IMG/VR virus record: IMGVR_UViG_3300022927_001927
DNA: 64,000 nucleotides
Reading direction: 5' to 3' (one strand)
Source: an uncultured virus (IMG/VR IMGVR_UViG_3300022927_001927)
Lineage: Duplodnaviria > Heunggongvirae > Uroviricota > Caudoviricetes
The position numbers and the translations under genes were made by a program. Numbering within the stretch: the first letter of the stretch is position 1; each line of letters begins with the position of its first letter. This document shows positions 6,532 to 26,676 of the stretch, piece after piece. The notes beneath the pieces are model-generated. The model ran no database searches. It had not been told where the DNA came from and worked only from the letters and a program-made list of their open reading frames with translations.

Positions 6532-7026
6532 ATGGCTAACATAGATAATCAATGTAAAGACCTTGAAGTAAGAGATTACTTTTCTGAAAACGGTTATGAA
6601 CAATCAAAGAATTCTTTAGAAGATCTCTATTCATTACAAGCAGAAACACAACAAATGTATTTTAAGAAACAAGGCCGTAAGCCTTTTTCTGAAATGAACA
6701 TAGGAGATGTTATTGACTTTCTCATGGTAACCAATCATGCAATAATCGATGAATTACATGAAATGGTCGATGCGGTCGGTGGTATCGAAGATGGTGTAGG
6801 TAATGCTGCATGGAAACCTTGGAAGTCTGCAAATCCTGAAATTAGACAAAAGAAACTGTCAGACTTAAGCCCAGGAGATCTTAAAGAACTTAAAATGGAA
6901 TGGATTGATGTAATGCATTTTGTATTTAATGCAGGTTTGGCAATCGGTGTTACTCCAGCAGAATTCTATAATTATTACCTTTCCAAGAATGAAGAGAATT
7001 GGAATAGACAGAAAAACAATTACTAA
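6532..7026 (+). CDS. All-alpha dCTP/dUTP pyrophosphatase (T4 gp56-like)
   Basis: DELHEM, WKPWK, EWIDVMHF, KNEENWNRQ. Confidence 0.8.
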   Translation: MANIDNQCKDLEVRDYFSENGYEQSKNSLEDLYSLQAETQQMYFKKQGRKPFSEMNIGDVIDFLMVTNHAIIDELHEMVDAVGGIEDGVGNAAWKPWKSANPEIRQKKLSDLSPGDLKELKMEWIDVMHFVFNAGLAIGVTPAEFYNYYLSKNEENWNRQKNNY

Positions 7027-10110: not shown

Positions 10111-11886
10111 ATGACAGCAGATCAATTAGAAAAAGAATTAGGATGGGAAAGGGGTGTTGATTACCCTGAATGGGGCCATACTAATGTTTACTTACAAACA
10201 ATATCAAAAGGATATTGTTTACCTGGAGAAACCCCAAGAGATGCATATTGGAGAGTATGTACTACTGTAGCAAATAGATTAAAGAAACCTGACCTTGCGG
10301 ATAAGTTTTTTAAATATATTTGGAAAGGATGGTTAAACTTAGCATCACCTGTATTAAGTAATACTGGAACTGAAAGAGGTTTACCTATAAGCTGTTTTGG
10401 AATTGATGTGGCTGATTCTATTAATGATATAGGGCAAAAGAACCTTGAATTAATGTTATTGGCTAAACATGGAGGTGGTGTTGGGATATGTCATAATCAG
10501 ATTAGACCTGCTGGTGCAGAGATAACCGATAATGGTACAAGTGATGGTGTAGTACCTTTTATAAAGATTAATGATTCTACTATTCTTGCTACTAATCAAG
10601 GTGCGGTTAGGCGAGGTGCAGCTAGTTCAAATTTAAATATTGAACATGGTGACTTTTGGGAGTGGTTAGAAATTAGAGAACCTAAGGGTGATATTAATCG
10701 TCAATGTTTAAATATGAATCAATGTGTTATCATTTCTGATAAGTTTATGAGAAAGGTAATGGAAGGTGATAATGATGCTAGGTCACGATTTTCAGCTGTT
10801 CAAAGAAAGAGAAGACAAACTGGGCAACCTTATATAATGTATCGAGGAAATGTTAATAAGCAAAACCCGGAAGCATATAAGAGAAATGGTTTAAAGGTCT
10901 TTATGACCAACATCTGCTCTGAGATAACATTACACAGCGACGAAAATCATTCTTTTGTATGCTGCTTAAGTTCTCTTAATCTTTCTAAATATGATGAATG
11001 GAAAAATACTAATCTTATTTATGATGCTACATGGTTTTTAGATGGCGTTCTTGAAGAATTTATACAAAAGGCAAAGTACAGAAAAGGGTTTGAAAATTCC
11101 GTAAGAACGGCAGAAAAAGGGAGAGCCTTAGGTCTTGGTGTTTTAGGATGGCATACATACCTACAGCAGAGAGGTATTGCGTTTGAAGGTTTAGAGGCTC
11201 AATATGAAACGCGAAATATCTTTTCTCAAATTAAAATTGAAAGCGAAAGAGCAAGCCGTGATTTAGCAGAAGAATACGGAGAACCTCTTTGGTGTAGAGA
11301 TACTGGATTTAGAAATACTCACCTTAGAGCCGTTGCTCCAACTGTTTCTAATTCTAAACTCGCTGGCGGTATTTCTGCTGGGGTTGAACCTGTACCTGCA
11401 AATATTTGGACCGATCAATCCGCAAAGGGAACCTTTATTAGAAAGAATAGTATTCTTGAAGGATTCCTTGAAAAGATAGGCCATAACAATAAAAAGGTAT
11501 GGGATAAAATAATGGCAGATGGTGGATCTGTACAAGGTCTTAAGTTTTTAGATGAGTGGTGTTTTGTTAAAGGAATTTTGGTTAAATGTAAAGATGTACC
11601 TGAATTTGAAGAAGGTGTACCTTTTAAAGATGTATTTAAAACCTTTAAAGAAATTAACCAATTAGAACTAGTAAGGCAAGCCGGTATTAGGCAACAATAT
11701 ATTGATCAAGCAGTATCTCTTAATCTTGCGTTTCCTAAAGAAGCTTCACCTAAGTGGATTAACCAAGTCCACCTTGAAGCATGGAAACAGGGAATCAAAA
11801 CACTTTACTATATGAGAACTGAATCTGTATTAAGAGGTGATATTGCCGCAAAAGCTATGGAAGAATGCGTAAGTTGTGATGGATAA
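10111..11886 (+). CDS. nrdA: Class I ribonucleotide reductase alpha subunit (no ATP cone)
   Basis: ASPVLSN, ISCF, GGGVG, TNICSEI, APTVS, KTLYY, C-terminal CVSC. Confidence 0.95.
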   Translation: MTADQLEKELGWERGVDYPEWGHTNVYLQTISKGYCLPGETPRDAYWRVCTTVANRLKKPDLADKFFKYIWKGWLNLASPVLSNTGTERGLPISCFGIDVADSINDIGQKNLELMLLAKHGGGVGICHNQIRPAGAEITDNGTSDGVVPFIKINDSTILATNQGAVRRGAASSNLNIEHGDFWEWLEIREPKGDINRQCLNMNQCVIISDKFMRKVMEGDNDARSRFSAVQRKRRQTGQPYIMYRGNVNKQNPEAYKRNGLKVFMTNICSEITLHSDENHSFVCCLSSLNLSKYDEWKNTNLIYDATWFLDGVLEEFIQKAKYRKGFENSVRTAEKGRALGLGVLGWHTYLQQRGIAFEGLEAQYETRNIFSQIKIESERASRDLAEEYGEPLWCRDTGFRNTHLRAVAPTVSNSKLAGGISAGVEPVPANIWTDQSAKGTFIRKNSILEGFLEKIGHNNKKVWDKIMADGGSVQGLKFLDEWCFVKGILVKCKDVPEFEEGVPFKDVFKTFKEINQLELVRQAGIRQQYIDQAVSLNLAFPKEASPKWINQVHLEAWKQGIKTLYYMRTESVLRGDIAAKAMEECVSCDG

Positions 11887-12619
11887 GTATATTTTAGGCC
11901 CGTGTTCTTTAGAAAGCCAAGAAAACTGTAAAGAAGTTTTAGATGTCTTATACCCTATAATGAAAGGTAAAGATTGGTATTTTAAAGGATCTTTTGATAA
12001 AGCAAACCGAACCTCTATCCACTCAGATAGAGGTCCTGGTATTCATAAAGGTTTAGATATATTTGCTTGGATTAAAGCAACCTATCCTAGTGTGAAATTA
12101 GTTACAGACATCCATGAACCGTGGCAAGCAGAGAAACTTTCAGGGTACATTGATATGATACAAATACCAGCGTTCTTATGTAGACAAACAGATTTAGTAA
12201 TAGCTTGCGCAAAATGGTTTAAGCATATTAATGTTAAGAAAGGGCAGTGGCTATCACCACATGCAATGGAACACGTAGTTACTAAAATTAAGGAAGTTAA
12301 TCCTAAAGCTAAAGTGTACATTACTGAAAGAGGTACTTCATTTGGTTATAGTGGTCTTATGCCTGACTTTAGGGCTGTTGATATTATGAAGTCATTTAGT
12401 GATGGGGTCTTTTTAGATTGTACTCACTCAACACAAAAACCTAAAGGTGAAACAACCGGGGGCGATAGAGAATTGGCTAAAAAATATGCCCTTGCTGCTA
12501 AGATATTTGAATACGATGGAGTATTTATTGAAACTCATCCTGATCCAACAAATGCAATTTCAGATGCTGATAGCCAAGTTGAATTAGAGTGGATCGTATC
12601 TCAAATAAATAATATATGA
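11879..12619 (+). CDS. kdsA: KDO8P synthase
   Basis: GPC, KGSFDKANRTS, TDIHE, QIPAFLCRQTDL, KKGQ, ERGTSFGY, ETHPDP. Confidence 0.92.
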   Translation: MDKYILGPCSLESQENCKEVLDVLYPIMKGKDWYFKGSFDKANRTSIHSDRGPGIHKGLDIFAWIKATYPSVKLVTDIHEPWQAEKLSGYIDMIQIPAFLCRQTDLVIACAKWFKHINVKKGQWLSPHAMEHVVTKIKEVNPKAKVYITERGTSFGYSGLMPDFRAVDIMKSFSDGVFLDCTHSTQKPKGETTGGDRELAKKYALAAKIFEYDGVFIETHPDPTNAISDADSQVELEWIVSQINNI

Positions 12620-13104
12620 AAACTAAAAAATCTGCAGGTTTAGCGATCATATATGACAATAAAATTTTATTGGCTCATACAACCTCAAGAGGATGGTATG
12701 GATCTTATGGTATTCCTAAAGGTGGCATTGATGATGGTGAATCTAAATTAGATGCAGCAATAAGAGAAACTCGTGAAGAAGTTGGAATTAACATTCCTAA
12801 AAAACTTATAGATCCTACTGAATATACATTTACGGTAAGTACCAAAAAATATGGTCATAAGATTGTATATTATTACATTGTAAAAATAGATGATCTTAAC
12901 CAGATAGGGTTAAAGGATTTAAGAGTTCCTAAAAAGCAATTACAAGTTGAAGAAGTTGACTGGGCTGGTTTTTTAGATTATAAAGAAGCTATGAAAAGAG
13001 TCATGAAGTCTCAAATTTCTTTAGTCAATAATTTAGTAGGAAAGGGACTTTTAGAAAAGAAGCAAAACATTTTAAACTTTAAAAGGTTTGGAGATAGATT
13101 ATAA
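12616..13104 (+). CDS. NUDIX hydrolase
   Basis: GGIDDGESKLDAAIRETREEVG Nudix box. Confidence 0.92.
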   Translation: MKTKKSAGLAIIYDNKILLAHTTSRGWYGSYGIPKGGIDDGESKLDAAIRETREEVGINIPKKLIDPTEYTFTVSTKKYGHKIVYYYIVKIDDLNQIGLKDLRVPKKQLQVEEVDWAGFLDYKEAMKRVMKSQISLVNNLVGKGLLEKKQNILNFKRFGDRL

Positions 13105-14143
13105 TAAGCTACTTGGAAGAGATCCTATTACTACGGATTTAGAAGCAATCCAAGATTACATAAAAGGTAAAAGAGTTTTAGTAACTGGTGGTGCTGGTTC
13201 AATAGGAAGTGAAATAGTAAGACAGTTAATTAAATGTGGGACATCTACTGTAACCGTTTACGATAATGCAGAGGCATCAATGTTTCATCTTGAACAAGAA
13301 ATATCCAGAACTTATCCAAAAGCTCATATTAAATATGTTATAGGAGATGTAAGAGATAAGTATAGATTAGACGAAATATTTGATACTTTTAAACCTAACA
13401 TAGTATTTCATGCAGCTGCATATAAGCATGTCCCTATGATGGAGTTAAACCCAATTGAGGCAATAAAAACTAATGTATTAGGAACAATGAATGTTTCCAA
13501 TATTGCTTATATGAATGAGGTAGAAAAGTTTGTAATGGTATCAACTGATAAGGCAGTAAATCCAACAAATATAATGGGTGCTACTAAAAGAATAGCCGAA
13601 CTTTATACACAATTCTTAGAAACTAAATCTGCCACAAATTTTATTGTTACTAGGTTTGGTAATGTATTAGGATCCGAAGGTTCTGTTATTCCTACGTTTA
13701 TTAAACAGATTGAAAGAGGTGGGCCTGTTAGTGTTACTCATAAAGAAGTTATTAGATATTTTATGACGATACCTGAAGCATGTCAATTAGTATTACAGGC
13801 AAGTGTTTTAGGTAAAGGTGGAGAAGTGTTTCTATTTGATATGGGTGAGCCTGTAAATATTAATGATTTAGCAAAAAGATTAATTTCTCATTTTAATAGT
13901 AATGCTGAAATTAAATACATTGGACTAAGACCAGGAGAAAAACTTTATGAAGAATTATTATGTGACGGGGAAAACATGGTTACTACTGATGATCATAATA
14001 TAATGAAACTTAATCATGTTGATTATGATTTTAAGGAATTAATCCCTAAGATAGAAAAACTTTCAAAAATAAGATCAAATGATTTTTATAAGATATTATT
14101 GTTAGTCAAAAGTATTGTCCCTGAATTTAAAAGAGAAGAATAA
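13088..14143 (+). CDS. UDP-GlcNAc 4,6-dehydratase (PglF/CapD-like, soluble)
   Basis: TGGAGSIGSE, HAAAYKHVP, STDKAVNP, MGATK, RFGNVLGS, RPGEKLYEEL. Confidence 0.92.
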   Translation: MEIDYNKLLGRDPITTDLEAIQDYIKGKRVLVTGGAGSIGSEIVRQLIKCGTSTVTVYDNAEASMFHLEQEISRTYPKAHIKYVIGDVRDKYRLDEIFDTFKPNIVFHAAAYKHVPMMELNPIEAIKTNVLGTMNVSNIAYMNEVEKFVMVSTDKAVNPTNIMGATKRIAELYTQFLETKSATNFIVTRFGNVLGSEGSVIPTFIKQIERGGPVSVTHKEVIRYFMTIPEACQLVLQASVLGKGGEVFLFDMGEPVNINDLAKRLISHFNSNAEIKYIGLRPGEKLYEELLCDGENMVTTDDHNIMKLNHVDYDFKELIPKIEKLSKIRSNDFYKILLLVKSIVPEFKREE

Positions 14144-14676
14144 TGGTAAACATTTACGGTAAAGGCGGTCATGCAAGAATGATAGCATCTCTTATTGATG
14201 ATAGCTATTCATTTTATAATGATGATGATTTTTATAAAGCTGATCCTAGATTTGATTGGATCATAGGAGTTGGCGATAATTCAAACAGAAAAAAGATTGC
14301 ACTTAAATTAGGTAATGTAGATTTTATAAATGCTGACCAAGGTCTATATGTAATGGAATATGAAATTGGTATAGGTGTTGTCATTGCACCAGGTGCGGTT
14401 ATTCAGAATGATGTATCTATCGGGAATCATGTAATCATTAATACATCTGCATCAGTAGATCATGATTGTGTAATTGGAGACTTTGTACATATTGCACCTA
14501 ATGTAACTTTATGTGGAGCTGTAGAAATCGGAGAAGGGACATTCATTGGTGCAGGCTCAGTTGTAATACCTGGAATTAAAATAGGGAAGAATTGTGTAAT
14601 TGGTGCAGGGAGTGTTGTAGTTAGAGATATTCCGGATAATTCTAAAGCCTACGGTAATCCTGCTAAATTAAAATAA
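14143..14676 (+). CDS. Sugar N-acetyltransferase (PglD/NeuD-like)
   Basis: GGHA, hexapeptide repeats, DHDC, YGNPA. Confidence 0.9.
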   Translation: MVNIYGKGGHARMIASLIDDSYSFYNDDDFYKADPRFDWIIGVGDNSNRKKIALKLGNVDFINADQGLYVMEYEIGIGVVIAPGAVIQNDVSIGNHVIINTSASVDHDCVIGDFVHIAPNVTLCGAVEIGEGTFIGAGSVVIPGIKIGKNCVIGAGSVVVRDIPDNSKAYGNPAKLK

Positions 14677-14677
14677 T

Positions 14678-15793
14678 ATGAAGAAAATATACTTATCCCC
14701 ACCTCATATGTCAGGTAAAGAGCTTGATTATATAAAAGAGGCATTTGAACAAAATTGGATTGCACCAGTAGGACCTCATCTTACCAAATTTGAAGAATCC
14801 ATTAAAGAATATACTGGCGCAAAACATGCCGTGGCGGTAACATCCGGTACTGCAGGTATTCACCTGGCATTAAAGGCTTTAGGTGTAGGAGATGGTGATT
14901 TTGTTATATGCTCTTCTCTAACCTTTATTGGAACCGTGAATCCTATTTTATATTGTGGAGCAGAACCTATATTTGTAGATTCTGAGGAAGGTACATGGAA
15001 CATGGATCCTGTTTTATTAGAAACCGCAATTCTTAATTCAAATGCAATAGGTAAAAAACCTAAAGCAATTATTCCAGTACATATTTTTGGAGTTCCTTGT
15101 AACATGGATGCAATTAAAAAATTATCCGATGAATATGATATACCTATTATTGAAGATGCTGCTGAAAGTTTAGGATCAACGATTGATGGAAAACATACAG
15201 GTACATTTGGTAAAATTGGAGTCTATTCATTTAATGGAAATAAATTACTTTCAACATCTGGCGGTGGGGTTATAATTACTGATGATAAAGAAAAAGCTGA
15301 TAAGATGAGGTTCTTATCAACACAAGCAAAAGATCCAATGCCGTTCTACCATCATACTGAAATTGGATATAATTATAGAATGAGTAATATTCTTGCTGCT
15401 ATAGGAATAGGTCAGATGGAAGTTATTGAAGATCGTATTAAAAGAACCCGTGAGGTTAACCAAATTTACAAAAAAGAATTAGGTGATTACTTTTATTCAT
15501 TCCAGGAGGAGACTGATCATGATAGATCCAATGCATGGTTAACTTGTGCTATTTTAAAACCAGAAGATAGACCACAAGAACTCATAGAACATTTAGCAAA
15601 TGATAATATTGAAGCTAGAAGGATTTGGAAACCTATGCATCAGCAACCGGTTCTAACCTCATACCGAAAATATATAAATGGAAACAGTGCTCTATTATTC
15701 TTACAAGGTATATGCTTACCTTCAGGGTCGGATTTAACCGATGAAGATCTTAAAAGGATAATTGAGTCAATAAAAACATTTTTCAATAAATGA
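14678..15793 (+). CDS. DegT/DnrJ family sugar aminotransferase (PglE-like)
   Basis: LSPPHM, SGTAGIHLAL, EDAAESLG, SFNGNK, GYNYRM. Confidence 0.92.
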   Translation: MKKIYLSPPHMSGKELDYIKEAFEQNWIAPVGPHLTKFEESIKEYTGAKHAVAVTSGTAGIHLALKALGVGDGDFVICSSLTFIGTVNPILYCGAEPIFVDSEEGTWNMDPVLLETAILNSNAIGKKPKAIIPVHIFGVPCNMDAIKKLSDEYDIPIIEDAAESLGSTIDGKHTGTFGKIGVYSFNGNKLLSTSGGGVIITDDKEKADKMRFLSTQAKDPMPFYHHTEIGYNYRMSNILAAIGIGQMEVIEDRIKRTREVNQIYKKELGDYFYSFQEETDHDRSNAWLTCAILKPEDRPQELIEHLANDNIEARRIWKPMHQQPVLTSYRKYINGNSALLFLQGICLPSGSDLTDEDLKRIIESIKTFFNK

Positions 15794-16686
15794 TAAGCTT
15801 TGATGAATACAATTTACTAGAGTCATATATAGGCTCAGGGAATTTTGAAATCTTATTAGAGAAGAATCTTACTAGTGAAATTGATAAAAAGATTAAGTTT
15901 GGTATTGTAATGCCTACTCATAAAATTTCTGATGGCGGTGCTCAGACTGGTCGTCAAAAATTTATGGACACTCCTTCTCTACTTAGAGATTCTTTAGGAT
16001 CTATTAAGAATCAGAAATATGACAATTATGTAGTTTACTTAGTAGGCGATAAATATGATGGTGATGAAGAAATAAAAAAGGTAATGGATGAAGTAATTCC
16101 TAAAGAAAAACTGAAATACCATAATCTATCGACACCAGGAGAACGTGACAAAGGTTTTACTAAACAACAATTTAGATATACGGCAGGATGTGGTGCTATG
16201 AATAAAGGCCTTCAGATGGCAAAGAACGATGGCTGTGATTACATTGTAAGAATTGATCATGATGATAAATGGAGCCCAGATCACTTGGAGCTTTTGGCAA
16301 AGGCATACACGCAATATCCTGAATTGGCATATGTATTTACAAGAAGTCGCAAAAAGGTAGATGCAACAAATAGTTCAAAGAAGTTTATGTATCAACCTAG
16401 AGATGAAAGACATACTAATACAATAGAGCCAAATAATCTAGGCTATACACATGGTGATGTTAGCCATTCAGCGGTTTCATGGAGACCTAGTATGTGCGGT
16501 GATTTAAGATACCGTGATGCATCTCAACAAGCAAACACAGCCCCAAAGATACCTATGGCTAAGACAAACCCGGCTGACGTTGATATGTTTAATAGAATGA
16601 TGAAAGCTATTAAAGATAAAGGGCATAAGTACATGTACATACCAAGACTAACAAGTTTCTATAGAAACAGAAAAGGTAAATTCTAA
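15790..16686 (+). CDS. GT2 family glycosyltransferase with N-terminal extension
   Basis: IVMPTH, SIKNQ, MNKGL, RIDHDD. Confidence 0.8.
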   Translation: MISFDEYNLLESYIGSGNFEILLEKNLTSEIDKKIKFGIVMPTHKISDGGAQTGRQKFMDTPSLLRDSLGSIKNQKYDNYVVYLVGDKYDGDEEIKKVMDEVIPKEKLKYHNLSTPGERDKGFTKQQFRYTAGCGAMNKGLQMAKNDGCDYIVRIDHDDKWSPDHLELLAKAYTQYPELAYVFTRSRKKVDATNSSKKFMYQPRDERHTNTIEPNNLGYTHGDVSHSAVSWRPSMCGDLRYRDASQQANTAPKIPMAKTNPADVDMFNRMMKAIKDKGHKYMYIPRLTSFYRNRKGKF

Positions 16687-16953: not shown

Positions 16954-17025
16954 AGTTTAATAAAGTCCTATTTACTTGAAACCTTTTTAAAAACCTCTAT
17001 ATAATAATAAATCAGTTTGGTTTAT

Positions 17026-17577
17026 ATGGAAAGGTGCTTAATATTAGATTTTGATGATACATTAGTTTCTACTATAGATACTCATGCAGATTCTTGGAGG
17101 CGAGCATTGGAAAGAGTCTTAAATAGAGAAATTCCAATAGAAACTATTATGGCCGATATTAATTATGGAATGGATGTTCTATTGCAAAAATATCAATTAA
17201 CCGAAAAGGAATCTCAATTGGCTCAGAAATATAAAAGACAAATCTTTTCTAAGAACCTGCATAAAACAAATGTTAACCAATTACTTCTGTGGATAATTGA
17301 AAACTCAAAATTTGAAAAGGTTATAATTGCATCTAATTCATCTAGGGAAAATGTGGATAGAATTATGTCGTATCATAACATTAGCCCAAATCTATTTGAC
17401 CTTATTGTAACCAGAGATGATGTTAAAAATAAGAAGCCTCATTCTGACATGGCAGATCTTATCTATAAAACATTTCCTGAATATACCTTTACTGATTTTC
17501 TTATGGTTGGTGATTCTGAAGTAGATTCAACATTCGCACTTAAAAATAATATGAAATGCATTCTGGTAAAGTTTTAG
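17026..17577 (+). CDS. HAD-family phosphatase
   Basis: DFDDTL, SNS, KKP, VGDSEVD. Confidence 0.88.
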   Translation: MERCLILDFDDTLVSTIDTHADSWRRALERVLNREIPIETIMADINYGMDVLLQKYQLTEKESQLAQKYKRQIFSKNLHKTNVNQLLLWIIENSKFEKVIIASNSSRENVDRIMSYHNISPNLFDLIVTRDDVKNKKPHSDMADLIYKTFPEYTFTDFLMVGDSEVDSTFALKNNMKCILVKF

Positions 17578-18302
17578 TAGGAAATAGTGGAGATCGCGTT
17601 TATCTCCAAGATAATAAAGTCATTAAAGAAGCAGGCGTTTATCCTATAAAGTTTAAACAGCAAATGGATTGGTTAGCAAACTGCAGTCATCCTAATTTTA
17701 TTAAGATTAATCCAATTTCGGATACTTCATTTGAAATGAATAGGTATCCTACATGGTATGAAAAGATTTGTGATCAACCTTTAATTAAATCGTTAGATCA
17801 ATTAGATAGGCTCATACATATTGTAAATGACTTTGACGGTTATGGTGCTGATGTAGATACAAGATCATATTTAGATAAACTTGAAACTAGGACAGGTTAT
17901 AAGTATGATGGTAAATTTGATGCTGCCTCAAAATGGGGTTTTGTACATGGTGATCTTACCGTAAGTAATATCTTATATGATAAAGATTTTATTTTTATTG
18001 ATCCTCGCGGTACTGAAGAACAGAGTTACTATGATCATGGTAAATTAATGCAATCATTTACTATGAAATATGAGTCCCATATATACAATGAAAGGAATCC
18101 TAAATATCTTAAGTTCTGTAGAGAAGCTGAAAAGATTATGTATCAATGGTATGATGAATATCAATTAAAGTTTTTCTTGGCAGTTCATTTATTAGGAGCA
18201 GTTCCATTTTTTGAATTAAACGAAAGGTATGAATTGGCAGGCATGTTCCTTAAGAAGGGCCACCAGTTATTTGATGAATTAGAAATTAATTATACTAAAT
18301 GA
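17556..18302 (+). CDS. APH/choline-kinase-like phosphotransferase
   Basis: HGDLTVSNIL and FIDPRG. Confidence 0.8.
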   Translation: MHSGKVLVGNSGDRVYLQDNKVIKEAGVYPIKFKQQMDWLANCSHPNFIKINPISDTSFEMNRYPTWYEKICDQPLIKSLDQLDRLIHIVNDFDGYGADVDTRSYLDKLETRTGYKYDGKFDAASKWGFVHGDLTVSNILYDKDFIFIDPRGTEEQSYYDHGKLMQSFTMKYESHIYNERNPKYLKFCREAEKIMYQWYDEYQLKFFLAVHLLGAVPFFELNERYELAGMFLKKGHQLFDELEINYTK

Positions 18303-19006
18303 GTAGAGTAAGAAAGGCAATTATCTTGGCGGCTGGTAAGTCAACAAGATACGGATCAAATAAACTCATTGATCCAATTTTAGGTAAATCAACAGTTCAG
18401 TACTGTATTGAATTTTGTATTGAAAACGGTATAGAAGATGCATATGTTACAATTAGTAAATCTGACTTCTTCTTTAAGAATAGAAATACTAAACTATCTC
18501 ATCCTATTATTGAAAGTTTATCAAAGTATAAGGAAAAGATAAACATTTACTATGAGTTCCAAAAGGATGATGAATATGGACCGGGTGCCGCTATTAAAGC
18601 ATGGGAAGGTAAATTTTATGAACCGTTCCTATGTCTGTTTGGTGATAATTACTATCAAGGAAATATTGGTTTAGAATATCACGATCCTAATGTATCAGTT
18701 GCTACATATAAAGATTACGATACTCGTGCAAGGAATTTACAACTTGCAACTATCCTAGAAGACGTAGTCATTGAAAAACCGCATGGTGTGGTAAGCGGTA
18801 GGTATTTTTGCGGATATATGATTTTTGCAAAAGAAGCATTTGATAATTTAAGTAGTATTAAGTTATCAAATCGTAATGAATATGAAATCACTCATCTTAT
18901 AAATTCAATGGAAAATTTAAAGTTTGAGAAATTAGGAATATGCTGGTATGATTTAACATACGAACAGGATAAACAAGTTATAGAAGACATCATCCAAAAT
19001 TGTTAA
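18299..19006 (+). CDS. Sugar-phosphate nucleotidyltransferase (RmlA-like)
   Basis: ILAAGKSTRYG, GDN, EKP, SNRNEYEIT. Confidence 0.88.
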   Translation: MSRVRKAIILAAGKSTRYGSNKLIDPILGKSTVQYCIEFCIENGIEDAYVTISKSDFFFKNRNTKLSHPIIESLSKYKEKINIYYEFQKDDEYGPGAAIKAWEGKFYEPFLCLFGDNYYQGNIGLEYHDPNVSVATYKDYDTRARNLQLATILEDVVIEKPHGVVSGRYFCGYMIFAKEAFDNLSSIKLSNRNEYEITHLINSMENLKFEKLGICWYDLTYEQDKQVIEDIIQNC

Positions 19007-19007
19007 T

Positions 19008-20273
19008 ATGAAAGATAACGTAAAAAAGGTCGGCTTTTTTAAATTAGGTAAAGCCATTAAGTTTAATGAAAATAGTTGGAGTGCAATCGGTGGTGATTGT
19101 GAACCTAAACAACTTATCTGCTCAATTGCAAACCGTAACCCAGATACCGAGTATTGGTTACTTAGTCCTAATGATTTAGGTAAGTTTAGAGCAAAACAAA
19201 AGCCAAAGGTAAATTCACTCTTTGGTCCACCACCAGAAGAAGAATCTGCAGTTCCTTCCAATATCAAAGAATTTCACTCTACTATGAAAGAGAGAAAGTC
19301 TGCAGACGAAACTGTTGAAATTATTAAGAGTTTAGATTTAGATTTTATCTTTTTCTATACAGGACCTACAAGTACTGTTAATATTGAAAATTACATTAAT
19401 AAAGTAGATGGTACTGGTAGAGTTAAATCTTTAGACTTCTTTAAGTATTATGCTGCTCCAATTATTCGAGCAATGAATGAATTGGAAAAGAAGGTACCTA
19501 TCGTAGGTTTACTGGTGGATAACCGATACGTTCTTTCATGTAAGGATTGGGGAAATAATAATCGACCTACTTATTATCTTGCGCAAAATAACTTTGAATT
19601 AGATGAAGAGTATTTTAGTAACCCACCTACTAGAGAAACTGCAAAAATACATTCTGTCTTTGAATATTCAGGAATTGAAACAGTATTCTTGTTGGATAAA
19701 AAACGATATGACATAGATGAACTCTTTGAAATGAAAAAAGATAATTCATTTATGATGTTACAAAACCAAGGAAAGGGCTCAGGTGGAATGGACCGCTGGG
19801 ATCCTGTAAAAGAGTATATTGTAGATCAAGATATTGAAACCGATATCTATGGTAAATGGGATGATGAGATTAAAGAAAAGTATTCTAAATGGTTTAAGGG
19901 AGAAACTCGTATTGAAACAATGACCGATGAACTTCTTAAAACTAAATACACATTCTGCGTTCCTATTAAAGAGGGTATGGTCACTTCTAAATATGCAGAA
20001 ATGCTACACTATGGTATTATACCTTTCTTACACCCATCTTACGATACTGAATTTAATGTGTTCCCAGAAGGTCATTTTATTAGATGTCAATCACCAGAAG
20101 ATCTCAAAAAGAAAATTGAATTCTTAAATGCAAACCCAGAGCATTATAAGAAATTATTCTATAACCTCCAAGAAAAATATCTTAAAGATTCATATTATAC
20201 TGGAGAACATGTAGATACTAAAATCTGGGAAGCTTATGAACGAGTAACTAAAACTGAAAACGTAAATGTATAA
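19008..20273 (+). CDS. GT-B glycosyltransferase resembling T4 DNA beta-glucosyltransferase
   Basis: C-terminal VTSKYAEMLHYGIIPFLHPSYDT...EDLKKKIEFL resembles the BGT C-terminal region by eye; DIYGKW. Confidence 0.55.
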   Translation: MKDNVKKVGFFKLGKAIKFNENSWSAIGGDCEPKQLICSIANRNPDTEYWLLSPNDLGKFRAKQKPKVNSLFGPPPEEESAVPSNIKEFHSTMKERKSADETVEIIKSLDLDFIFFYTGPTSTVNIENYINKVDGTGRVKSLDFFKYYAAPIIRAMNELEKKVPIVGLLVDNRYVLSCKDWGNNNRPTYYLAQNNFELDEEYFSNPPTRETAKIHSVFEYSGIETVFLLDKKRYDIDELFEMKKDNSFMMLQNQGKGSGGMDRWDPVKEYIVDQDIETDIYGKWDDEIKEKYSKWFKGETRIETMTDELLKTKYTFCVPIKEGMVTSKYAEMLHYGIIPFLHPSYDTEFNVFPEGHFIRCQSPEDLKKKIEFLNANPEHYKKLFYNLQEKYLKDSYYTGEHVDTKIWEAYERVTKTENVNV

Positions 20274-21288
20274 TTCTGAAACTAAAATCCTGGTCACCGG
20301 TGGAGCTGGGTTCGTTGGAACAAACTTTATCAACGATTTATTAAATAGAGGTCATAATCCTAACTGTATTGCTGTAATTGATAACTTATCTCACGGTACT
20401 TATATCCCTAAGGTTCATGATCAAATTGAACATTTCTATAAAGAGGATATTAGAAATCAATATGTAGAAAATATTATTCAAGAGTTTAAGCCTGAGTATG
20501 TTTATCACTTTGCAGGTCTAGTTTCGATCTATGACTGTAATGAAGATCCTTATGAAGCGGTGGACAATAACATTTTAGGTAGTATTAATATAATGAATGG
20601 CTGCGTTAAGGCAGGTGTTAAGAGAATCATATTTAGCGAAACTTCTGCTGTATATGAAAACTGTGAAATGCCAGATGCTGGGTTTAACGAAACACAATCA
20701 GATCCTACGACCATCTATTCTACATCTAAAGCATGCCTCGCGTTATTAGCAGAATCTTACCAGAGAACTAAAGGTCTTAATTATACTGCATTAAGATATT
20801 TTAATGTAGCTGGACCACTACAAGATTATAATAGAACAATACCGCCAGTATTTGCAGGATTCATTTTAAGAATTAAAGGTGGTCATAATCCTATCGTATT
20901 TGGAGATTATATGAAAGCTCGTGATTACATTGATGTATCTGATGTTAATGCATTCCACATTCTTTGTATGGAAAATGAAAATACTGCAAATCAAACATTC
21001 AACTTAGGTACAGGTAAAATGACAAACCTAATGGAACTTAAAAATATGATTGGCAATATTATGGGAGTTGGTGAAGTTCCTTTTGACCATTATGATCCTA
21101 TTGCTGGAGAAGCATTAAATATTCGCGGTGATATTTCTAAAGCCAAATCAATGGGCTGGGAACCTAAGAAAGATATTAGAGATACTATTAAGGAAACTAT
21201 TGTATATCTTGAAAATGAAATCGCTGAAGGAACAATTGATCCTTTAACATTCATGGAAGATTTAGAAATTGAAAAAGTAAAAATATAA
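20266..21288 (+). CDS. NAD-dependent sugar epimerase/dehydratase (GalE-like)
   Basis: TGGAGFVG, YSTSK, LRYFNVAG, RDYIDV. Confidence 0.92.
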   Translation: MYNSETKILVTGGAGFVGTNFINDLLNRGHNPNCIAVIDNLSHGTYIPKVHDQIEHFYKEDIRNQYVENIIQEFKPEYVYHFAGLVSIYDCNEDPYEAVDNNILGSINIMNGCVKAGVKRIIFSETSAVYENCEMPDAGFNETQSDPTTIYSTSKACLALLAESYQRTKGLNYTALRYFNVAGPLQDYNRTIPPVFAGFILRIKGGHNPIVFGDYMKARDYIDVSDVNAFHILCMENENTANQTFNLGTGKMTNLMELKNMIGNIMGVGEVPFDHYDPIAGEALNIRGDISKAKSMGWEPKKDIRDTIKETIVYLENEIAEGTIDPLTFMEDLEIEKVKI

Positions 21289-21296
21289 AAAATAAT

Positions 21297-21962
21297 ATGG
21301 GAAACGTAGGTAAATATACACCAAGCGGTGAATTTGTAGAAGAAAATCCTCTGTATGAATTTGAAGCCGATTATTGGGGGAATTGTTGTAATTCTCTTGA
21401 TGAAGAAATAAAACAATTCTTTTATGCTAAACTAATGAGTATTGATAAATACTCCCCATTTTCTTTTTCTGTTAATGGAAAGAAAATACTAGATATTGGG
21501 GGCGGTCCGGTTTCATTATTACTTAAATGCCATGATCATGGAGGATCTAAGGTTGTGGATCCTATTAAGTATCCTAAGTGGACAATTGATAGGTATGCAG
21601 CTAATAATATTGAATATGATCAAAAACCAGGTGAAGATGTTGATGAGGAGGGATATGATGAAGTTTGGATCTATAACTGTTTACAGCATGTAATAGATCC
21701 AGAAAAGATAATTAATAATGCCAAGAAAGCTGCGCCTGTAATTAGAATATTTGAATGGATTGATATACCTGCACACGAAGGTCATCCTCATGAATTAAAG
21801 GAAGACAAACTTAACAAATGGTTAGGTGGTAAAGGTAGTGTAGGTATTATTCAATATGATGAATATTCCTCAGTATTCGGTGATAACTTACCTGTGATAA
21901 GAGAAAGAATCGGCGATGGCGGGGCATGTTATTATGGTGTTTTTAAACATAATAAAAAATAA
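21297..21962 (+). CDS. Class I SAM-dependent methyltransferase
   Basis: ILDIGGGP, VDP, NCLQHVIDP. Confidence 0.8.
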   Translation: MGNVGKYTPSGEFVEENPLYEFEADYWGNCCNSLDEEIKQFFYAKLMSIDKYSPFSFSVNGKKILDIGGGPVSLLLKCHDHGGSKVVDPIKYPKWTIDRYAANNIEYDQKPGEDVDEEGYDEVWIYNCLQHVIDPEKIINNAKKAAPVIRIFEWIDIPAHEGHPHELKEDKLNKWLGGKGSVGIIQYDEYSSVFGDNLPVIRERIGDGGACYYGVFKHNKK

Positions 21963-21965
21963 GAT

Positions 21966-23228
21966 ATGAGTAAAGAATTAAAATGGGGTACTATTATTCC
22001 TCTTATTGGAGGTAGTGCCATAGGTTGTAAAAAATCTGCAGGTAATGAACCGGCTTTTCATTTAAGCTATGAAGCATTTGCTGCAAACGAAAGCCATATT
22101 GAAAGATATTGGCCAGATGTACCAATGTATAGACTAGATCATGAAGAATTAGAAATACCTAATCAAACATTCGAAGGTGTTGATTATGTAAATTCAGTCT
22201 GTCCATGTGCAGGCTTATCCTTATTGAATTCTGCTAGTGGATCTGCTGCATCGCGTGGATCTGATGCTGTTCAAAATAAATGGATGTATGAATCATCTGA
22301 ATATATTTTAGAACATGTAAAACCTAAAGTTCTTTGGGGTGAAAATGCCCCAGGCCTTTTTACTAAAATGGGAGAAGGTGTAGTAGAAAGACTTAGAGAA
22401 ATTGCAGAAAAACATGGATATAGTTTTTCTCTCATTAAGACCAATACAGAATTACATGGTATTCCACAGAGAAGAATGCGTACCTTTTACTTCTTTTGGA
22501 ATACACCAACAGTTCCAATGTTAGAGTGGAAGTTTAGAGAAAAGAAAAAGCTTATTGACTATCTTAACGAAATACCTGAGGATGCTACACAACAAGACAT
22601 GTTCATGGTACCTGGAAAGGTCACTGATCATTTTAGACCGTATGAGTTTGTTTTAGAAAAAGAAGGCTTAACTCATGCCGAATTTTCTGCTAAGTTTAAG
22701 AAAGGTACTATTGCACAGTATCTTGATAAGAATGAATTACTCGATGAATGTATTGACTGGTTAGATAAACATTATCCAAAAGAAGGTTTTTCCAATAAGA
22801 AGTCAACTAAGACATTTATTGATATGTTGGAGCATCAGAAGAATAAAGTAAGTCAAGGGCTTGGGTATTGGGATGCATCGCCACATTTTTTCCATGATTC
22901 TTTTTCTGCTCTGATTGGTCGTAATATGTTTAATGGTGTTCATCCTGTAGAAAATAGATATCTTAATGTAAGAGAGATGCTTCATTTAATGGGTCTTCCT
23001 TTAGATTTTGAAATTGAATCTTCTCGCCAAGTTAATCATATTGCACAAAATGTACCAGTTACCACTGCTATGGATATGGCCGATGAGGTGAAGAAGTTTT
23101 GTGAAGGTAATGCAAAAATGACAAATTATACATTCCTAAAACAAGATAACACTAATCATAAGATTATTGAAGCAGAAGAAATTGGAGCTAAACCAAAAAA
23201 GAAGTATAAAGTAAAAAGTATAATTTAA
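21966..23228 (+). CDS. C5-cytosine DNA methyltransferase-like protein with atypical motif I
   Basis: CPCAGLS (IV), ENAPGL (VI), GIPQRRMR (VIII), RYLNVRE (IX), QNVP (X); motif I reads IPLIGG. Confidence 0.82.
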   Translation: MSKELKWGTIIPLIGGSAIGCKKSAGNEPAFHLSYEAFAANESHIERYWPDVPMYRLDHEELEIPNQTFEGVDYVNSVCPCAGLSLLNSASGSAASRGSDAVQNKWMYESSEYILEHVKPKVLWGENAPGLFTKMGEGVVERLREIAEKHGYSFSLIKTNTELHGIPQRRMRTFYFFWNTPTVPMLEWKFREKKKLIDYLNEIPEDATQQDMFMVPGKVTDHFRPYEFVLEKEGLTHAEFSAKFKKGTIAQYLDKNELLDECIDWLDKHYPKEGFSNKKSTKTFIDMLEHQKNKVSQGLGYWDASPHFFHDSFSALIGRNMFNGVHPVENRYLNVREMLHLMGLPLDFEIESSRQVNHIAQNVPVTTAMDMADEVKKFCEGNAKMTNYTFLKQDNTNHKIIEAEEIGAKPKKKYKVKSII

Positions 23229-23230
23229 TT

Positions 23231-24238
23231 ATGAAAGATAAAGCTTTAGCCATCGGCGTATCCAGTCTAGAGTTTACTAATATCTTATGTAGTTATTATC
23301 CTAGAGGAGTTAAAGAGAAGTTTGACATTTATCTGTTTGTGGATGATACTAAAATAGACCTAGATAAACTTAGTGGTATTTTTGAAGAACATGATTTGGA
23401 TATATTTAAAAATGCCAAAATTATTATTCTTAATGATCTTTATGACCATTACATTGAGAAGCATGGTTATGAAGGTAAAGCAAAGGAATTTCTTTTAAGT
23501 CATGGTTGCTTATTTAAGATCTTAATGCCAATTTATCTTAAAGAAAAATTTGGAGTAAAGAGAACTCTTGTATCTGATGATGATGTATTTATATTAAATG
23601 ATATAAGTTACATGTGGGATGAATATAAAGAGTTCGGTATCAAAAAGGAAAATCTATTTTACATTAGAAACAAGGATAAGTATGATGTAATGGATGCTTT
23701 TAATGAAATCTTTGAATCTGATTTTACATTAGAGCAAATGAATGCACTTTCTATAAATGCAGGTAATATCATATACGGAGACGATCCTAAGTTAGAGTAT
23801 TATTTTGAAAGATTTATGAAGCACCCATTTATTCATCATCTTTACTTTAACTTTACAGGATATACAAGCTGGACAGTTGAGCAGAGATTCCACCACTTTA
23901 ATATTCATAGATATTTAGCAGAAGGGAGAAAGGTTAAATTTACCAATAGTAAAGATTTAAGACTTATGCAAAATCTTGATAAAGGAATGAAGGCAGGTAC
24001 TCCTGATGAAAGGTATCTTAAACAAGTAACTCCTTCAATTATTCATTATGCTATAGGTACAAAAAAGCCTTTATGGTTGAGAGATTTTTTACCAGGTTTA
24101 TCATGGAAATTTGATGGTTTTCAATATGAACCTAAATATGAATTAAAGGGTATCTTGTATAATAAAGATTGGCAACCACCTTCTTTTAAGAGTGTACAAA
24201 AGAAACAAAAAGAATTTAAAATTAAGTCAGTATTCTAA
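23231..24238 (+). CDS. Putative GT-A glycosyltransferase
   Basis: SDDDVF DxD motif, INAGN, EQ, IIHY...KP (GT8-like). Confidence 0.55.
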   Translation: MKDKALAIGVSSLEFTNILCSYYPRGVKEKFDIYLFVDDTKIDLDKLSGIFEEHDLDIFKNAKIIILNDLYDHYIEKHGYEGKAKEFLLSHGCLFKILMPIYLKEKFGVKRTLVSDDDVFILNDISYMWDEYKEFGIKKENLFYIRNKDKYDVMDAFNEIFESDFTLEQMNALSINAGNIIYGDDPKLEYYFERFMKHPFIHHLYFNFTGYTSWTVEQRFHHFNIHRYLAEGRKVKFTNSKDLRLMQNLDKGMKAGTPDERYLKQVTPSIIHYAIGTKKPLWLRDFLPGLSWKFDGFQYEPKYELKGILYNKDWQPPSFKSVQKKQKEFKIKSVF

Positions 24239-24690
24239 TGGATAAGATAACAACAGCTACATTTAAAATGGATAAAGGAGATATGGTATTTCGGCTTTAT
24301 GAAGAAACACCAATTCATACTGGGGCATTCATTAATAATGCAAAAACAGGTCAATTTAAGGGAATTGAATTTTATAGAGTAGAACCTAACTTTGTAATAC
24401 AGAGTGGTCCTAAAGAAGCCAATGGGCGTATGTGGGATGAAACAAAACCACCTAGAAGAACAAAAGATAATAATACGCATTTCTTTGGCGTATTAAGTTC
24501 TGCTAATTCAGGACCAGAACATTCATCAATAGGTGTCTTTTTTATATCTCTAGGAAGATGGAGAGGGCGAAGTTTGGATGAAGCATATACATCATTTGGT
24601 CACATAATTGAAGGGTGGGAACATCTTGAAAAAATTGAAAAGGGTGACATTATTAATGATGTAATAATTAGAGAGTATACATTAAACTAA
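24238..24690 (+). CDS. Cyclophilin-type peptidyl-prolyl isomerase
   Basis: FYRVEPNFVIQSG, GVLSSANSG, YTSFG. Confidence 0.88.
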   Translation: MDKITTATFKMDKGDMVFRLYEETPIHTGAFINNAKTGQFKGIEFYRVEPNFVIQSGPKEANGRMWDETKPPRRTKDNNTHFFGVLSSANSGPEHSSIGVFFISLGRWRGRSLDEAYTSFGHIIEGWEHLEKIEKGDIINDVIIREYTLN

Positions 24691-24731: not shown

Positions 24732-25481
24732 ATGGAAACAACAATTAACAAAATTGACGGTTATGAATTAAGTTCATTCGTCCGCAAACTACTTCCAATT
24801 GACAAGTTTATCTTTATGAAGATTGCAAAAGAAGGAACTGTTTCTTCTGTCTATTTTCCTGAACGAGATGCTGTTAAATTGGTTAGCACACCAACTAAAG
24901 ATATCTTTGAAGCAGATATTGATAATCCGGTAAAAGTAAGCTTCTATAACGGTACTAAAGTTATTGATGCGTTAAGCCATTTTAATGGTGATGTAAAAGG
25001 TCGTATTAAGTATACTGAATATGACGGAGAATACATGGCAAGTGATTTTATTTTAGAGAATGATGATCTTCAAATTAATCTTGCATGTACCGATCCATCA
25101 TTATCATTTATGGAAATGAGTAAAGAAGAAACTGACCGAGCATTTGGAACTGAATCTAAGATGTTTGAATTTGATCTTCTTACTACTCATGTAGATAAAA
25201 TGAAATCATTGTTTAACCTTGATAAAGAAGAAGATATCTTTACTCTTTGTATTGGAGAAAAAGGTATTAACATTAAAGGTACTTCATACGATGCTACACT
25301 TTGTCACTCATATGATTCATCTGTTGAAAAAGGTGCAAAGGTTGTTATCTATAAGAAATACATAAACCTTTTAGATAAGGAAAACTATAAAGTGAGTGTA
25401 TGTGAAAATAAAGTTGTTTTCAAATCGTTGGATACTAACACTCATCTTACTGTGGCGGTTGCCATTACAGACGAAGATTAA
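24732..25481 (+). CDS. Sliding clamp (T4 gp45-like)
   Basis: 249-aa two-domain pattern ending YKVSV...VVF...LTVAVA; directly upstream of polymerase subunit. Confidence 0.65.
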   Translation: METTINKIDGYELSSFVRKLLPIDKFIFMKIAKEGTVSSVYFPERDAVKLVSTPTKDIFEADIDNPVKVSFYNGTKVIDALSHFNGDVKGRIKYTEYDGEYMASDFILENDDLQINLACTDPSLSFMEMSKEETDRAFGTESKMFEFDLLTTHVDKMKSLFNLDKEEDIFTLCIGEKGINIKGTSYDATLCHSYDSSVEKGAKVVIYKKYINLLDKENYKVSVCENKVVFKSLDTNTHLTVAVAITDED

Positions 25482-25492
25482 TCCCGTCTATC

Positions 25493-25533
25493 TAAGGGCA
25501 TCTAATTAAGTTTAGGTGCCCTTAAACTTTTTT
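25493..25533 (+). terminator. Hairpin/terminator overlapping next promoter
   Basis: taagggcatcta / taggtgccctta then aactttttt. Confidence 0.55.
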
Positions 25534-25557
25534 AATCTTTACCTTATAAAAATAAAA

Positions 25558-26676
25558 ATGACAGAGGAATTACAGCAAATAAAAGAAGAAGCATCAAAGT
25601 ATTATAATTATGAACAAGCTGTAAAGCTAATGCTTAACTCTATTTACGGTGCATTTGGTAATCCTTATTTCTATTTCTTTAATGTTGATATAGCCGAAAC
25701 TATTACCCTTCAAGGTAAAGATGCTATCCTATATACTGAAAGACTTATTAACAAATATTTTAAAGAATATTGGCATAAAGATACTGCTGCTCACCAAGCT
25801 ATGGGAATAACAGTAACTGGTAAAATTGAAAAACCTGTTGGTATTTATATTGATACTGATTCGGTATATGTAAAGTTTGAGGAACTAATTAAAAAATCTG
25901 AAGGGTGGGAAGGTGATGAAAAAGAATTCATTTTAAAGTTATATGAAGTAAGACTTAAAGCTTATATAGAAAAAATTCTACAGGTGTATGCTGATAATAA
26001 TAATGCAGAAAACTTTTTATCATTTGAATTAGAAAGTATTGCTAAGAATGCAATATGGCTTGCCAAGAAAAAGTACATGCAGAATATTGTTTGGAAGGAT
26101 CCGGATATTCATTATGATGATCTTTCTAAAATTAGTTCTAAAGGATTTGAAATTATACAGTCATCCACTCCAATTTTTGCTAGAGAAAAACTAAAAGAAT
26201 TGCTAACATATATATTTTCGGCTGGTGAATTAGATATGGGTAAATTTGCAAGTCAACTTAAAGATATTAAAAGACAATTTAGATTAGCAAATGTAGATCA
26301 AATCAGTTTTTCACGAAAGGTTAATAATTATCAACGATATATAGTAAACGATTATGATACATTTGAAGTTGCATCTAAATGTCCAATTGGGGTAAGATCT
26401 GCAGGTTATCATAATTACCTATTAAATAACTCCAGTGTGAAAGGAAAATATCAGCCACTAGGAAACGGCGAAAAATGTAAAATGTACTTTTCTGTAGATT
26501 CATCCTGCGATGTATTTGCATATGCTCCTGGTGATTATCCTTATGAATTTGCCCCTAAGGTAGATTATGATAAACAATTTGAAAAGACAATATTGGATCC
26601 AATAAATCGGGTTGTAACTGCGATGGGATTTAAGGCCTTTAACAGAAACATAATTTATACCACCAATCTTTTCTAA
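25558..26676 (+). CDS. Family B DNA polymerase, C-terminal subunit (motifs B, C, thumb)
   Basis: KLMLNSIYG, YIDTDS, KKKY, KGFE; ATG 25558 after A-rich leader. Confidence 0.92.
   Translation: MTEELQQIKEEASKYYNYEQAVKLMLNSIYGAFGNPYFYFFNVDIAETITLQGKDAILYTERLINKYFKEYWHKDTAAHQAMGITVTGKIEKPVGIYIDTDSVYVKFEELIKKSEGWEGDEKEFILKLYEVRLKAYIEKILQVYADNNNAENFLSFELESIAKNAIWLAKKKYMQNIVWKDPDIHYDDLSKISSKGFEIIQSSTPIFAREKLKELLTYIFSAGELDMGKFASQLKDIKRQFRLANVDQISFSRKVNNYQRYIVNDYDTFEVASKCPIGVRSAGYHNYLLNNSSVKGKYQPLGNGEKCKMYFSVDSSCDVFAYAPGDYPYEFAPKVDYDKQFEKTILDPINRVVTAMGFKAFNRNIIYTTNLF

Follow-up and report, generated by a model that had tools for sequence, protein, structure and literature searches.

Bases 1-64,000 of the 121,963-base virus contig IMGVR_UViG_3300022927_001927, the stretch that we call the window, contain a compact operon in which sugar-activation genes stand beside predicted glycosyltransferases (GTs) and an enzyme of the cytosine C5-methyltransferase (C5-MTase) fold. 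The record is about 40% complete. Portal, gp23 capsid, sheath, terminase, clamp loader and split family B polymerase genes, found on the contig by Pfam scans, mark its source as a large T4-like myovirus. The capsid protein is nearest to that of the 462-kb phage LR756500 (59%), followed by those of Lak, pT24, PAU and PTm1 (31-39%), and these relatives, together with a CHU_C domain protein, make a Bacteroidota host likely. An earlier note, made from the sequence alone, had described a cytosine hypermodification operon of eight open reading frames (ORFs) here, and all eight lie on the + strand, overlapping or no more than 8 nt apart, behind a promoter-like site:

16976..17005, + strand: AAAC-N16-18-TATAAT promoter-like site ahead of the run (11/12 sigma70 match)
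17017..17577, + strand: HAD phosphatase, likely a sugar-bisphosphate phosphatase (Pfam HAD_2, E 8e-22)
17556..18302, + strand: APH-fold kinase, likely a sugar-phosphate anomeric kinase (APH, E 0.011, below cut-off)
18299..19006, + strand: sugar-1-phosphate nucleotidyltransferase (NTP_transf_3, 3e-6)
19008..20273, + strand: GT-B glycosyltransferase, a distant relative of T4 beta-glucosyltransferase (BGT) by profile and Foldseek; likely the primary glycosyltransferase for 5-hydroxymethylcytosine (hmC)
20266..21288, + strand: GalE-like NAD-dependent nucleoside diphosphate (NDP)-sugar epimerase/dehydratase (Pfam, 8e-46)
21297..21962, + strand: class I S-adenosylmethionine (SAM) methyltransferase, accessory (Pfam 0.004, below cut-off; phrog_3603, 4e-71)
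21966..23228, + strand: C5-MTase-fold enzyme with rebuilt cofactor motifs and a polymerase-like C-terminal tail (PF00145, 7e-19)
23231..24238, + strand: GT-A/GT8-like protein, accessory, possible second sugar (ESM Atlas GT8 cluster at 0.96)

Pfam support is strong for the HAD phosphatase, the epimerase and the PF00145 protein, weak for the kinase, the SAM methyltransferase and the GT-B, and nil for the GT-A. Our preferred reading, to which we give a probability of roughly 0.7, is that this phage would incorporate hmC into its DNA as a nucleotide and afterwards glycosylate it with a sugar activated by the operon.

The earlier note saw no hydroxymethylase in the window, which is correct, and left the attachment handle unexplained. 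A gene predicted to provide the handle lies on the same contig, at a distance of about 52 kb. Outside the window, 80 ORFs were scanned with Pfam, and two of them encode thymidylate synthase (TS) homologs, at contig positions 75,972 and 103,287, of which the latter is an ordinary ThyA (N177). The former (KDFVCT...RSNDLILGTPTD) has T4 dCMP hydroxymethylase (1b49) as its best PDB match, with an E value of 1e-25 compared to 1e-13 for the best thymidylate synthase, and combines the TS fold and catalytic Cys with D143, D169 and D177, the sequence signature of a dCMP hydroxymethylase. According to the available sections of a recent study, D177 selects dCMP, an acidic residue at 143 accompanies hydroxymethylation and 5-hydroxylases carry N169 (PMC13326640 sections 24, 28); read against these, the signature indicates hmC, and not 5-hydroxycytosine, as the product. 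By its sequence, then, the gene at 75,972 is a predicted T4-type dCMP hydroxymethylase. It adjoins a dNMP-kinase-like gene (75,211) and a guanylate-kinase gene, is found in 4/4 partial relatives searched, and its D143/D169/D177 triad is seen again in 14 of 16 scanned loci, with no TS match at the remaining two. Within the window, a further gene fits the supply of a modified nucleotide:

6532..7026, + strand: dimeric dUTPase/dCTPase-like protein, likely removing dCTP (PF08761, E 9e-4, below cut-off)

A homolog of this protein (E 2e-22) lies two genes after the C5-MTase-like gene in phage XG4. An Fpg/Nei glycosylase gene (window 5657-6493) adjoins the dCTPase-like gene, and phage G also has one near its own cluster. 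A search for TET/JBP enzymes gave no match in five incomplete records, with a silent positive control, or in Pfam scans of the operon and its flanks.

The same TS residues bear on whether the base is instead 5-hydroxycytosine, as in the arabinosylation system of RB69 and DLP3. The kinase-phosphatase-nucleotidyltransferase logic is common to both, and the contig encodes a KdsD-like isomerase as well. Every 5hodCMP synthase tested in the accessible part of the published work has N at position 169 (PMC13326640), whereas D169 is kept in the phage TS and in 14/14 related TS motifs found, and none of the eight phage records that match the GT-B by tblastn is RB69-like. We rejected the 5-hydroxycytosine route on the strength of D169 and regard it as very improbable.

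The second element of the proposed system is the GT-B enzyme. The earlier note suggested comparing it with T4 BGT, and BGT proved to be the top match by two methods. A 106-sequence profile of the 421-aa protein placed T4 BGT first among three PDB matches (E 2.7e-8), and with an AlphaFold model (pLDDT 93.7) as the query, Foldseek ranks 1-4 were all T4 BGT (E 6e-11, TM 0.52). D171 is invariant in the 106 sequences, and its DxR motif aligns with the TDIR stretch of BGT, so that D171 may correspond to the catalytic D100 of BGT. Among 50,697 phage records, tblastn matched the GT-B in eight: XG4, Enterococcus 9183-like phages, and short matches. In XG4 the gene order is TS, HAD, fused nucleotidyltransferase-kinase, GT-B, second GT, C5-MTase-like gene, small ORF and dCTPase-like gene, and the 9183-like phages have a similar cluster without a PF00145 gene. 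GT-B homologs adjoin a hydroxymethylase-type TS in both XG4 and 9183, and in XG4 and three further loci (L070, L082 and L085) the GT-B, C5-MTase-like gene, nucleotidyltransferase and hydroxymethylase-type TS are grouped together. The profile, the fold and the hydroxymethylase on the contig thus favor the idea, already present in the earlier note, that a BGT-like enzyme would attach a sugar to a C5-modified cytosine.

To follow the remaining genes, we compared the operon across 28 IMG/VR loci of 83-100% identity, many of them near-duplicates and one identical. The HAD phosphatase gene, which in relatives begins three codons further in, at ATG, is present in 24/28 loci, and the kinase and nucleotidyltransferase genes are each present in 25/28; the loci that lack them (four and three, respectively) are truncated. 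The epimerase and the C5-MTase-like gene are kept in all 28. Among NCBIfam models, the nucleotidyltransferase best matched Arch_glmU (8e-16) and rmlA_long (3e-14), both below cut-off. In Bacillus phage G, the kinase, HAD and nucleotidyltransferase are separate genes whose products match those of the window at E values of about 1e-10 (gp311, 2e-10; gp310, 8e-10; gp309, 1e-11). A kinase, phosphatase, nucleotidyltransferase and epimerase conserved wherever the loci reach them agree with the earlier suggestion that the phage makes its own NDP-sugar. The suggestion that this sugar may be methylated fared less well as a core trait: in 20 of the 28 loci the run is free of small methyltransferases, four have the phrog_3603-type enzyme of the window, and four more carry other methyltransferases (UbiG-like or FkbM, from three proteins scanned), so sugar methylation, if real, would be a variable extra. 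The GT-A protein contains a DDD motif and occurs in 21/28 loci. It has no Pfam or PHROG match and bears the weakest label in the operon; as an optional enzyme it could plausibly perform the second step of the one- or two-step attachment that had been proposed.

Sugar genes and glycosyltransferases could also build a virion or host-surface glycan, leaving the DNA with unglycosylated hmC. The contig is rich in Kdo, bacillosamine-like and GDP-sugar genes and other GTs, and small methyltransferases of the FkbM and UbiG types come and go within the run. Set against this are the rank of T4 BGT as the best match to the GT-B, the hydroxymethylase-type TS next to GT-B homologs in unrelated phages (XG4, 9183, L070, L082, L085), and the absence of the Pgl-like genes from many relatives that retain the core; we consider a purely surface-glycan role improbable. 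Three groups of glycan genes stand out on the contig. KdsA (window 11876-12619) and KdsB (contig 91,599), both over the NCBIfam cut-off, form a near-complete CMP-Kdo pathway with a KdsD-like SIS protein; PglF/PglD/PglE-like dehydratase, acetyltransferase and aminotransferase genes with a GT2 lie directly upstream of the operon (window 13088-16686), in some relatives only; and a second glycan cluster (contig 85,273-92,348) contains pyruvyl transferase-like, O-methyltransferase, GNAT, DegT, Gmd and KdsB genes. The KdsD-like protein, at contig 118,579, has a homolog in three of four partial relatives and, with KdsA and KdsB on the same contig, may serve Kdo synthesis.

These genes can be arranged into a pathway for glycosylated hmC. 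Supply of hm-dCTP would fall to three proteins: the dCMP hydroxymethylase (75,972), its neighbor the dNMP kinase (75,211) and, at 6,532, the dCTPase-like protein. The kinase, HAD phosphatase and nucleotidyltransferase would convert a sugar monophosphate to an NDP-sugar via the bisphosphate, by analogy with the HY126/RB69 route, and the epimerase would then reshape it. Arabinose 5-phosphate, supplied by the KdsD-like isomerase, is the most probable feedstock, and a heptose or hexose is also possible. The BGT-like GT-B would move the sugar onto hmC, with the GT-A and small methyltransferase perhaps adding decorations in some lineages. A phage route of this kind, in which a kinase, phosphatase and nucleotidyltransferase make UDP-arabinofuranose from arabinose 5-phosphate for DNA arabinosylation, is described in the available text of PMC13326640 (section 27). 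With that route published and the hydroxymethylase of T4 type, the novel chemistry that the earlier note envisaged gives way: the handle gene, the BGT-like GT-B and the conserved sugar genes together suggest a version of known hmC glycosylation. If so, hmC glycosylated with a sugar of the phage's own making is to be expected in a widespread group of uncultured phages.

Several observations weigh against this pathway. The GT-B is only 10-12% identical to BGT, with a TM score of 0.52, and BshA-type GT4 enzymes score nearly as well as BGT against it. The kinase and nucleotidyltransferase match the fused XG4/9183 proteins weakly (E 0.004-0.8). Surface-glycan genes are abundant (KdsA and KdsB over cut-off, PglF/D/E-like, Gmd-like and several GT2/GT4), so the isomerase and the genes of the sugar module may work for glycans of another kind. 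Finally, total replacement of cytosine by hmC would leave a C5 methylase without a substrate.

The last of these points concerns the most unusual enzyme of the operon. The C5-MTase-like protein has the catalytic PC, an ENV-type Glu, QxRxR and, by structure comparison, the overall fold of a C5-MTase, and its C81, E126, R170 and R172 are invariant in 82 aligned sequences. It lacks the FxGxG of motif I and the GNxV of motif X: motif I reads IPLIGG where five canonical C5 enzymes have LF(S/A)GxG, and motif X reads AQNVP compared to IGNAVP in M.HaeIII, both changes being common to the family. As these SAM-binding motifs are not the canonical ones, we class the protein as a C5-MTase-fold enzyme. Of 22 distant C5-MTase-like loci, several of them near kin, 15 have a TS in the DNA retrieved around them and 8 have a strong match to the GT-B family, so the gene tracks the hmC handle more than it tracks the GT-B.

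Its C-terminal tail suggests where it may act, and brings in the genes that follow the operon:

24238..24690, + strand: cyclophilin, last gene of the run, sporadic among relatives (Pfam, locus comparison)
24732..25481, + strand: probable sliding clamp behind its own promoter copy at 24684 (ESM Atlas, 0.95)
25516..26676, + strand: family B DNA polymerase, C-terminal half, ending YTTNLF (Pfam, PHROG, tail sequence)

The polymerase, the C5-MTase-like protein and the GT-A share related short hydrophobic C-terminal tails: YTTSLF/YTTNLF in 74/74 polymerases, KYKVKSII/KYKVNSTF types in the C5-MTase-like proteins, and xxKSVF/TSLF types in the GT-A proteins. In other lineages the methylase tail switches to KSLF-type or LxxFF-type endings, and SLASFFS and NLESFFG tails are found in loci with the most T4-like hydroxymethylase. 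LxxFF resembles what we take to be the clamp-binding motif of T4/RB69. These tails suggest that the enzyme would most likely dock on the clamp and modify cytosines that escaped substitution, likely acting at the replication fork on freshly made phage DNA. The GT-B of the window's lineage has no tail of this kind. CpG methylation by the phage enzyme was not supported: CpG is low on the contig (rho 0.53), but fourfold sites show no deficit of C before G (ratio 1.0; 0.61-1.48 in close relatives), and CpG is also low in LR756500 (0.57), which has no PF00145 match.

Regarding its activity, SAM-dependent methylation is the leading candidate, at slightly less than even odds. Transfer or exchange of another C5 group, for example a hydroxymethyl group as a second, post-replicative route to the handle or a new base, appears unlikely: the family-wide changes in motifs I (IPLIGG) and X (AQNVP) would suit it, and CmoX provides a precedent for an altered cofactor (PMC12783734), whereas a classical hydroxymethylase would already supply the handle and the only PF00145 match of cyanophage S-TIM54 belongs to this family. 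Some function other than C5 methylation or group transfer is doubtful too, if a little less so. We rejected a CmoX carboxymethyltransferase, as the SPPC motif of CmoX candidates is replaced by SVCPC, the family profile matches 8yf3 weakly (E 3e-4), and Pfam scans of the 40%-complete record found no CmoA-like or asparagine-synthetase-like gene. The DNA of S-TIM5 is reportedly methylated at cytosines after purines. In S-TIM54 (L035:6111-6953), an annotated ThyA two genes from the odd methylase has D177 with H147 and C143, residues that point to dCMP as its substrate.

Among 185,579 prokaryote genomes (GTDB), the family occurs in six loci, four with a hydroxymethylase-type TS nearby. Contigs of metagenome-assembled genomes with both the methylase and such a TS include a 425-kb contig in a Pacearchaeota bin (L141), which also has a terminase-like ORF, and L142-L144; all are probably mis-binned large phages. 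The only isolate genome among the six loci is a Victivallis vadensis contig (L145:3003-4172), where the retrieved DNA gave a match to neither TS nor GT-B. The methylase match is divided or runs across additional DNA at L135, L137, L090 and L140, where a self-splicing insertion is possible.

The surroundings of the operon partly match their earlier description. The AAAC-type promoter said to precede the run is there, as a copy at 16979 of AAAC-N16-18-TATAAT, which occurs 13 times on the + strand and 0 times on the - strand of the 122-kb contig, mostly shortly upstream of ORF starts. Our initial pattern gave 2 matches versus 2.1 expected, and the strand-biased set appeared only with corrected spacing. 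The clamp and polymerase genes do lie downstream; the run itself continues into the cyclophilin (24238-24690), and the clamp that follows is preceded by a second promoter copy (24684). In the ESM Atlas cluster of the clamp candidate (0.95), gp45-slide_C is found on 16% of members. The DNA polymerase is encoded in two genes 17 kb apart (window 7049-8458 and 25516-26676). CCTAGG is missing from the whole contig (0 observed versus 27 expected on both strands), and TCGA, ACGT, CTAG and CCGG are likewise low across it.

The C5-MTase-like family also extends beyond phages. A homolog search returned 2,144 proteins, and among the 120 matches listed, many were 470-710 aa long at 47-59% identity. Two homolog clusters consist of EukProt transcripts of the copepod Neocalanus flemingeri (six and four members), whose proteins are 54-56% identical to the phage protein; this argues against their being canonical DNMT1/2/3 orthologs, and when the copepod proteins are included in a family profile, its match to plant/fungal DNMT1-type structures is no better than E 1e-6. 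Scans of 30 extended homologs gave C2H2-type Pfam matches below cut-off in eight and a CXXC finger over cut-off in one, and the consensus contains paired CxxC...HW...C repeats.

A maximum-likelihood tree of 54 rows groups the 25 eukaryote-type rows in a single clade (100/98) of at least four subfamilies. This clade is itself nested in a larger one (98/88) that also includes the window's lineage and the phage-type P0166/P0174, and the two N. flemingeri paralog clusters fall in different subclades. Rows without zinc fingers took their labels from the first tree, so that part of the grouping is circular. That first tree kept 107/137 rows, after removal of fragments under 340 aa and most close relatives; later trees used the 54 chosen rows, rooted trees and approximately unbiased (AU) tests used 31, and the rows of all trees exclude DNMT1/2/3 sequences. 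Rooting on five canonical plasmid and phage C5-MTases placed the root next to phage G. A phage-only clade was rejected (AU p 0.006 under LG+G4, 0.0007 under a mixture model) in a test that long branches weaken. With this nesting and this rejection, phage-to-eukaryote transfer is the best reading of direction.

These sequences might instead belong to a symbiont, a parasite or prey of the copepods, or to a eukaryotic virus. Here the evidence against a copepod genome counts: the records are transcriptomes and metagenomes, not assembled copepod genomes; of 20 clusters looked up, a species is named for just two, both N. flemingeri; and full-length ORFs were called without introns. A 2,047-base contig (L087) encoding a 71% identical relative is found in 20 of 23 listed runs, seven of them recorded as RNA and some labelled with two single organisms. 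An intron search in it found no GT-AG joint, in DNA runs that cover it only in short low-depth pieces and so speak neither for nor against introns. The ten N. flemingeri transcripts in two paralog clusters, the third-position GC of 0.68 in the core of the 2,047-base contig versus 0.21 in the phage gene, the zinc-finger-like extensions (one CXXC), the lack of any IMG/VR relative for the P0157 patterns, and the rarity of the family among prokaryote genomes, mostly near a hydroxymethylase-type TS, all make a non-copepod source unlikely. We therefore consider it probable, from these comparisons, that a eukaryote lineage including calanoid copepods acquired a member of the phage C5-MTase-like lineage once, then duplicated it and extended it with zinc-finger-like tails. 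A bolder composite is tentative and falls well short of even odds: the enzyme would write on DNA cytosines while docked on the clamp, possibly using a cofactor other than SAM, and calanoids would have taken it from a marine T4-like phage and expanded it into at least four subfamilies with zinc fingers. If this composite were true, a group that ranks among the most abundant animals would have a phage-derived DNA modification system besides DNMT1, which, in the parts of the source available, calanoids express as well (PMC7460014). The copepod branch thus bears on calanoid methylomes, for which the accessible text of another report describes unusually strong unimodal CpG depletion (PMC11706791). 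The literature searched, mostly without subscription papers or supplements, contained nothing published on the family of this methylase or on a copepod methylase of phage origin; the supplements of Pyle et al. may list the contigs treated here.

Among known systems, the T4 glucosyl-hmC pathway (gp42, gp1, gp56 and BGT) is alike in its hydroxymethylase triad, dNMP kinase, dCTPase-like gene and BGT-fold transferase. Unlike T4, this phage has its own sugar-activation module and epimerase, a GT of 10-12% identity, an extra C5-methylase-fold enzyme, and handle genes far from the operon. The arabinosyl-5-hydroxycytosine system of RB69, DLP3 and HY126, as far as described in the available sections (PMC13326640), shares the kinase, HAD phosphatase, nucleotidyltransferase, arabinose-5-phosphate isomerase homolog and GT-B; here, D169 is kept, the kinase and nucleotidyltransferase are separate, an epimerase and C5-MTase-like gene are added, and the GT-B has no tblastn match to those phages. 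In the accessible portions of Pyle et al. (10.1101/2023.12.21.572611), C5-MT + TET + GT clusters likewise place a C5-methyltransferase beside GTs and an epimerase, and the GT-B contigs of that study carry ThyS (about 28%) more often than 5mYOX (about 10%), with genes for an APH kinase, an epimerase, a methyltransferase and the clamp lying nearby. In contrast to those clusters, the handle here would come from a TS homolog, with no TET/JBP match in the 40%-complete record (control silent). Phage G (gp301-gp319) and XG4 share the C5-MTase-like family, hydroxymethylase-type TS, HAD, kinase and nucleotidyltransferase; phage G has alpha-GTs instead of this GT-B, and its modification is chemically unresolved in the available part of the report on it (10.1101/2024.12.16.628780). 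Both are cultured and offer testable proxies for the odd methylase. As for the copepods, few cases would compare with an animal that had domesticated a phage DNA-modifying enzyme; one is the N4CMT of bdelloid rotifers, reportedly a bacterial methylase recruited by an animal and fused to a eukaryotic module. Both would be prokaryote-type DNA methylases in an animal, whereas the copepod proteins, known from transcripts and metagenomes, would be C5-fold enzymes of a phage DNA-hypermodification lineage with zinc-finger-like tails.

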